Shown here one piece after another: positions 57,946 to 58,143 of a stretch of DNA of 64,000 nucleotides. Each line of letters starts with the position of its first letter. Positions within the stretch are counted from its first letter, which is position 1. The stretch is from NCBI RefSeq assembly GCF_055900595.2, contig NZ_CM148325.1; one strand, written 5' to 3'. The position numbers and the translations under genes were made by a program. Under the pieces are notes generated by a model. That model saw only the letters and a list, made by a program, of their open reading frames with translations. It had not been told where the DNA came from and did no database searches.

Positions 57946-58045
57946 AACTCACTCCCTGTTCTTTATCGTTATATAAAAGTTTATATATTGAATATTTAGC
58001 GCGCTAACAATAGAGGGAGTCTACCCATTTTGGGTTAAGAATTAT

Positions 58046-58059
58046 TAATCCATATCAAT
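58046..58059 (-). promoter_or_regulatory. FNR-like box (TTGAT-atgg-ATTAA on minus strand) upstream of ynfE
   Basis: Matches the FNR consensus TTGAT-N4-ATCAA with one mismatch, about 100 bp upstream of the ynfE start. Confidence 0.35.
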
Positions 58060-58143
58060 AGAACGGTATGAGTAATAAGGCGGGATTATGTTGTATGTTC
58101 ATATCGCCGGACCTGTTGAATCCGGCGTTTAGTCAATAATGTG

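Follow-up and report, generated by a model that had tools for sequence, protein, structure and literature searches.

The FNR box TTGATATGGATTAA (58045..58058, minus strand; centre 58051.5) upstream of ynfE in a segment of the E. coli terminus region is, we are confident, the binding site of a class II FNR-activated sigma70 promoter of ynfE, and as such is already known. Three lines of evidence carry this assignment: published FNR binding and expression data obtained in E. coli K-12 on identical DNA, the geometry of the box relative to the -10 hexamer, and conservation of the box and of its spacing across Enterobacteriaceae. The same short spacer and leader also hold two further operator-like elements, of the NarL and ModE types.

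Results

The ynfD-ynfE spacer and the operon

The window (the whole stretch of 64,000 nucleotides that was analysed) is an E. coli terminus-region segment containing tus and rstAB. Most complete E. coli genomes share 95-99% identity with it, and ten share 99% or more; it comes from an E. coli lineage other than K-12. The operon ynfEFGH-dmsD lies on the minus strand at 50894..57945 and, by ORF limits, comprises ynfE (55519..57945), ynfF (53035..55461), ynfG (52407..53024), ynfH (51551..52405) and dmsD (50894..51517), with the K-12 annotation placing the starts of ynfF and dmsD slightly later. Gene order and lengths are as in K-12 MG1655. The first ORF encodes 808 amino acids with a twin-arginine leader and carries the ynfE annotation in E. 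coli genomes. Its ATG (57945..57943, minus strand) is preceded at 6 nt by the Shine-Dalgarno sequence GGGAG (57952..57956, minus strand), and GGAGTGAG-N2-ATG is nearly invariant in the cross-genus alignment upstream of ynfE.

Between the ynfD stop codon (58146..58144, minus strand) and ynfE lies a spacer of 198 bp. As ynfD and ynfE are co-directional and there is no divergent gene, ynfE is the only gene that this spacer can serve. Directly 3' of the ynfD stop codon we noted a GC-rich hairpin, CGCCGGA-(9 nt)-TCCGGCG (58105..58127, minus strand), without a T-tract; a consensus promoter and terminator scan found no canonical terminator after ynfD. The loop of the hairpin differs in K-12. In other genera its place is taken by an unrelated GC-rich hairpin, such as CCCTCCG...CGGAGGG in Citrobacter and Salmonella, so that the structure is kept and the sequence is not. 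The hairpin probably marks the end of the ynfD transcript, and hence the upstream limit of the ynfE promoter. A search of 57800..58300 against Rfam (E <= 1) gave no match, and thus no known riboswitch, including that for Moco, was found in the ynfE leader.

The FNR box and the strength of its motif

The preliminary description had placed an FNR-like box with one mismatch to the consensus on the minus strand within 58040-58065, about 100 bp upstream of the ynfE start. We found it at 58058..58045, reading TTGAT ATGG ATTAA and flanked on the minus strand by ccgttcta upstream and taattc downstream. The distance was also correct: the promoter-proximal edge of the box is 100 nt, and its centre 106.5 bp, from the A of the ynfE ATG. 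Against TTGATNNNNATCAA (TTGAT-N4-ATCAA) the box matches 9 of 10 specified positions, the exception being a T for C at position 12; this single mismatch takes away the G:C pair of the promoter-proximal half-site.

To score the box we used a symmetric weight matrix built from the 62 FNR sites at ChIP-seq peaks of Myers et al. (PMC3688515); the ynfE site itself was excluded. On this matrix the box reaches 13.3 bits, the third-highest value of all 14-mers in the window. This value is inside the range of bound sites (11.7-21.0 bits) but among the lowest 13% of them, and 0.97 sites scoring at least as high are expected per 64 kb of Markov-1 sequence. The bare motif match is therefore weak evidence, no more than expected by chance. 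Two FNR-like 14-mers, GTGATCTTGATCAC (2515..2528) and GTGATGCGGATCAA (19436..19449), slightly outscore it; the sites that correspond to them in K-12, one near tppB and one inside uidA, were predicted but have no ChIP-seq peak (PMC3688515). That these higher-scoring 14-mers lack one indicates that the motif alone predicts little. One-mismatch matches to TTGATNNNNATCAA are more frequent in the whole window than expected (9 versus 3.0; none of 100 shuffles reached 9), and these nine lie mostly inside genes.

The score and rank of the box are what would be seen if it had no function and AT-rich intergenic DNA happened to match a short, degenerate palindrome by chance. We regard that explanation as highly improbable, because an FNR ChIP-seq peak covers the exact 14-mer and expression of the operon depends on FNR (PMC3688515), and because the context of the box argues against it as well. 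No other site in the 198-bp spacer scores above 3 bits, and one as good as the box occurs in 0.47% of simulated spacers of matching composition, a local chance of 0.005. Moreover, 79 of 81 loci have kept the box, and its distance from the -10 hexamer is fixed. Once context is counted, as the lone good site of the spacer together with its positional conservation, the FNR box is more than a chance match.

Two other FNR-like sequences in the window may be mentioned. The mlc-bidA(ynfK) spacer contains the 14-mer TTGAGATAGCGCAA (48697..48710, minus strand; 9.9 bits), approximately 80-90 bp upstream of bidA/ynfK, a gene for which Myers et al. (PMC3688515) report both a ChIP-seq peak of FNR and activation by FNR. 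The one-mismatch box TTGATAAATATTAA (63291..63304; 12.3 bits) is located between convergent genes, not in a promoter position, and adjoins the 3' end of a 178-amino-acid minus-strand ORF (63306..63842).

FNR binding and activation in K-12

The window is identical to K-12 MG1655 from 58063 to the ynfE ATG, the nearest difference being G/C at 58064. Upstream of 58063 the two sequences differ in ynfD itself and in the loop of its hairpin, and none of the differences is in the promoter. Experiments on the K-12 promoter consequently bear on the very same DNA. Myers et al. 2013 (PLoS Genet 9:e1003565) list the exact 14-mer TTGATATGGATTAA for ynfE at an FNR ChIP-seq peak (PMC3688515, Table S6), which was called by three ChIP-seq algorithms and by ChIP-chip, whereas an earlier ChIP-chip study missed it (Table S5); earlier direct binding evidence for ynfE was recorded as 'None' (Table 1). 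In the same table the ynfE site is placed at -40.5, with the transcription start site (TSS) taken from EcoCyc or Kim et al., and the ynfEFGH-dmsD operon is assigned to Category 1, 'directly activated by FNR', with both sigma70 occupancy and expression higher without oxygen. The operon is scored as 'Activated' in all three transcriptome data sets that compare the wild type with fnr (Table S8). The sigma70 signal at ynfE was 27 under aerobic and 709 under anaerobic conditions (Table S2), and the aerobic/anaerobic ratio for ynfE is given as 0.027 (Table S12).

FNR occupancy, fnr-dependent expression and anaerobiosis-dependent sigma70 occupancy have been demonstrated, then, in K-12 and on identical sequence. 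The proposal of the preliminary description that FNR activates ynfEFGH-dmsD anaerobically is borne out by these data, and binding of FNR, the lack of which it had named as a refutation, is seen by ChIP-seq. Papers that cite Xu, Busby & Browning 2009 (J Bacteriol 191:3172) describe the ynfE promoter as both FNR-dependent and repressed by phospho-NarL, and a memory circuit built on this promoter responded only anaerobically and without nitrate (PMC6561318).

We considered whether CRP or some other protein of the CRP/FNR family, and not FNR, could bind the palindrome. CRP and FNR sites are related inverted repeats, and both proteins activate from about -41.5. The left half of the box is, however, the FNR-specific TTGAT. 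The chromatin immunoprecipitation was made with FNR, and expression of the operon was lost in the fnr mutant (PMC3688515). We consider binding by CRP or a similar protein in place of FNR very improbable. A CRP-dependent promoter, tried as a candidate on the pattern TGTGA-N6-TCACA, was rejected: of the 22 positions centred on the box, only 10 agree with the CRP consensus, and the cores are ATTGA and TTAAT, not TGTGA and TCACA.

Geometry of the ynfE promoter

At FNR- and CRP-dependent promoters of class II, the activator sits across the -35 region and makes direct contact with RNA polymerase. The spacer has the layout of such a promoter. A -10-like hexamer, TAGACT (58018..58023, minus strand), begins 28.5 bp downstream of the centre of the FNR box. 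At the -35 position the sequence reads AATAAT (58046..58041), which matches TTGACA at one of six positions, and the promoter is thus without a -35 element. No complete sigma70 promoter for ynfE was found by the consensus scan, a blank that is expected for an activator-dependent promoter and is uninformative. With the -10 hexamer at -12..-7, transcription would start at an A at 58011 (minus strand) and the centre of the box would be at -40.5. The start at 58011 was derived from the published box position of -40.5, fits this placement of the hexamer, and gives a leader of 66 nt. In the supplements of Kim et al. 2012 we found an orthologue table for b1587 and no TSS. The promoter hence combines, with a start position deduced from published data, the three features of class II: a box near -41.5, a recognisable -10 and no -35.

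A different geometry, in which transcription would start from a second -10-like hexamer, TATTGT (58012..58007), would put the FNR box near -51.5 and the NarL/NarP-type element described below between -35 and -10. A yAtyaT-like hexamer followed by a conserved TTAGC is present at this place in many genera, and the TSS used here is a deduced one. Nevertheless, -51.5 is an unproductive position for activation by FNR or CRP, according to the established class I and class II spacing. Furthermore, the TATTGT hexamer is absent in Klebsiella, Silvania and Leclercia, while the TA that ends the NarL/NarP-type element is kept in 75 of 79 loci. The published position of -40.5 was, in addition, given relative to a known TSS (PMC3688515, Table 1). 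A start from TATTGT is therefore very unlikely. For the class II geometry with a start at 58011, the distance between the TSS and the box is compatible with activation, a point raised by the preliminary description: the published -40.5 (PMC3688515), the 28.5-bp spacing to the -10 hexamer and the lack of a -35 element all agree.

Conservation of the box and its spacing

Within the species, 5293 of 5426 complete E. coli genomes carry the 130-bp ynfE promoter with an identity of 95% or more. Strain AVS0935, which has the most divergent full-length promoter among twelve records listed from the whole span of this identity ranking, carries five substitutions, all outside the FNR box. In E. coli EC06 (NZ_CM169496.1; L082:1748..2500) an IS1A is inserted between the NarL/NarP-type element and the -10 hexamer. 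It separates the FNR box from the core promoter, and the operon of this strain is presumably no longer under FNR control.

For comparison between genera we collected 80 ynfE loci from species-representative genomes of approximately 25 Enterobacteriaceae genera, with 82-97% protein identity over the N-terminal 450 amino acids. The pattern TTGA-N7-TAA is found upstream of ynfE in 79 of 81 Enterobacteriaceae loci versus 1.3 after shuffling; because it was picked after the data had been viewed, its invariant columns are partly circular, which does not apply to the count against shuffled sequences. It is mostly located 92-110 bp from the ynfE ATG. The centre of the box is separated from the TA of the -10 hexamer by just 28.5 or 29.5 bp in 76 of 79 loci, which places the box at -40.5 or -41.5. 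The TA itself persists in 75 of the 79 loci, and the longer pattern TAnnnT in 52. Such a fixed spacing across the aligned loci is the kind of constraint that a class II activator site should show, and it does not depend on a measured TSS.

The proximal half-site departs from the consensus in a constant manner. In all 79 box-bearing loci its position 12 is a T and never the consensus C. Escherichia, Citrobacter, Salmonella, Enterobacter and Kosakonia have ATTAA or GTTAA as this half-site, and Klebsiella, Raoultella and Kluyvera have the degenerate GATAA (3-9 bits). FNR dependence of ynfE in the latter three genera is less certain. The constancy of the non-consensus position 12 (in the half-site 58045..58049) suggests a weak site that is maintained, not one that drifts. 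The T at this position may have been selected, for example, for a low affinity to FNR, so that the operon would fire only at full anaerobiosis.

A NarL/NarP-type element overlapping the -10 hexamer

Between the FNR box, from which a 7-nt spacer separates it, and the -10 hexamer lies a NarL/NarP-type 7-2-7 element made of two inverted heptamers, TAACCCA-AA-ATGGGTA (58022..58037, minus strand), which overlaps the first two bases of the hexamer. It matches TACYYMT-NN-AKRRGTA at 12 of 14 positions, a match that is not significant by itself in the window. Across genera, a match of at least 12 of 14 is present in 61 of 79 loci (chance approximately 0.001 per locus), and the element starts 7 or 8 nt after the FNR box in 76 of 79. 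It is better conserved than the FNR box itself. Repression of the ynfE promoter by NarL is attributed to Xu et al. 2009 in PMC6561318, and repression by nitrate and NarL is also supported by microarray data. The 7-2-7 element at 58022..58037 is probably the site of this nitrate repression, a position of NarL that is suggested by the match and its conservation.

A ModE-type operator in the leader

The ynfE leader contains a ModE-type operator, TTCAATATATA-AACTTT-TATATAACGAT (57965..57992, minus strand), which matches ATCGNTATATA-N6-TATATANCGAT, the E. coli ModE consensus as quoted in PMC545781, at 18 of 20 positions. It is the sole match in the window, where 0.12 are expected at three or fewer mismatches. 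Its centre is 33.5 bp upstream of the ATG, or at about +33 from the start deduced above. The site matches at 16-18 of 20 positions, in the same place and with a variable N6 spacer, in Escherichia, Citrobacter, Salmonella and Intestinirhabdus, and at 13 of 20 or fewer in other genera (for example, Enterobacter, Klebsiella, Kluyvera and Kosakonia). We found no link between ModE and ynfE in the accessible literature.

As RNA, the leader palindrome would form a weak, AU-only hairpin, and the whole leader folds at -6.7 kcal/mol. Given the match to the ModE consensus and the weakness of the stem, a DNA operator is probably the better reading of the palindrome, which could also be taken for an RNA hairpin of this kind. 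The ModE-type operator may serve to bring the selenate reductase operon under molybdate control, acting from about +33. That it does so, in a way hitherto undescribed, and that the T at position 12 of the FNR box was also possibly selected is, taken together, a tentative proposal that we hold to be rather doubtful.

The leader has another feature near its 5' end, a perfect palindrome, TTAGCGCGCTAA (57996..58007, minus strand), at about +5..+16. Within it T-AGC (58007, 58005..58003; +5..+9) is nearly invariant in an alignment of 20 genera, unlike the rest of the leader. T-AGC and TTAGCGCGCTAA might represent half of another operator, or the initially transcribed sequence might itself be under constraint.

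Discussion

The findings suggest the following picture of the ynfE promoter. Without oxygen, a [4Fe-4S] FNR dimer binds TTGATATGGATTAA, centred approximately 40.5 bp upstream of the transcription start. Bound FNR would overlap the place of the missing -35 element and recruit RNA polymerase to the weak -10 hexamer TAGACT, and transcription of ynfEFGH-dmsD would start at about 58011. Nitrate, via phospho-NarL at the 7-2-7 site that overlaps the -10, would shut the promoter off. We infer exactly where transcription starts in this strain and that NarL acts at the 7-2-7 element, as well as the contacts of FNR with polymerase, the last because the class II mechanism is established.

The element is the same as that of the K-12 ynfEFGHI (ynfEFGH-dmsD) promoter, with an identical FNR 14-mer at -40.5, direct activation by FNR (PMC3688515) and repression by NarL (PMC6561318). 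The FNR box at ynfE is therefore already known, and there is nothing biologically new in the box itself.

The nearest relative of the ynfE promoter is P1 of the paralogous DMSO reductase operon dmsABC, which has the same layout in K-12. Like ynfE, dmsABC P1 has a class II FNR box (at -41.5; PMC3688515, Table 1) with one mismatch in the promoter-proximal half-site, followed by TAAT and then by a NarL-type heptamer (TACTCCT in dmsABC). The dmsA leader also contains a ModE-type operator, TTCGATGTATA-CAAGCC-TATATAGCGAA (L084:361..388), as does that of ynfE, and dmsA is known to be under the control of both FNR and ModE. The two promoters differ in detail. The mismatch in the dmsA box, TTGATACCGAACAA, is at position 11, in contrast to position 12 in ynfE; the heptamer follows the box after 5 nt in dmsABC P1 versus 7 nt in ynfE; and the ModE-type site is approximately 85 bp from the ATG in dmsA versus 33.5 bp in ynfE.

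A weak half-site is not peculiar to ynfE. The FNR sites of ompW, uspF, katG and cspA have TTAAT/ATTAA in one half-site, as at ynfE, and are nonetheless occupied by FNR in vivo (PMC3688515, Table S6). The ynfE site differs from these in the gene that it controls and in that its weak half-site is the proximal one, conserved in every locus examined.

Engineered gut E. coli already use the ynfE promoter as a sensor part for anaerobic, low-nitrate conditions (PMC6561318), and it also serves as a promoter for anaerobic expression (bioRxiv 10.1101/2021.01.06.425572). FNR activation of ynfEFGH-dmsD, a selenate reductase operon, was established between 2005 and 2013, and its recovery here is a positive control: a reading of the sequence alone had picked out a genuine, experimentally validated regulatory site. 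Around this site, the analysis gives a picture of ynfE control that consists of a fixed spacing between box and -10, an invariant weak proximal half-site, a very well conserved 7-2-7 element and a ModE-type operator restricted to a clade. Signals for oxygen, nitrate and, probably, molybdate are thus packed into approximately 95 bp upstream of a molybdoenzyme operon.
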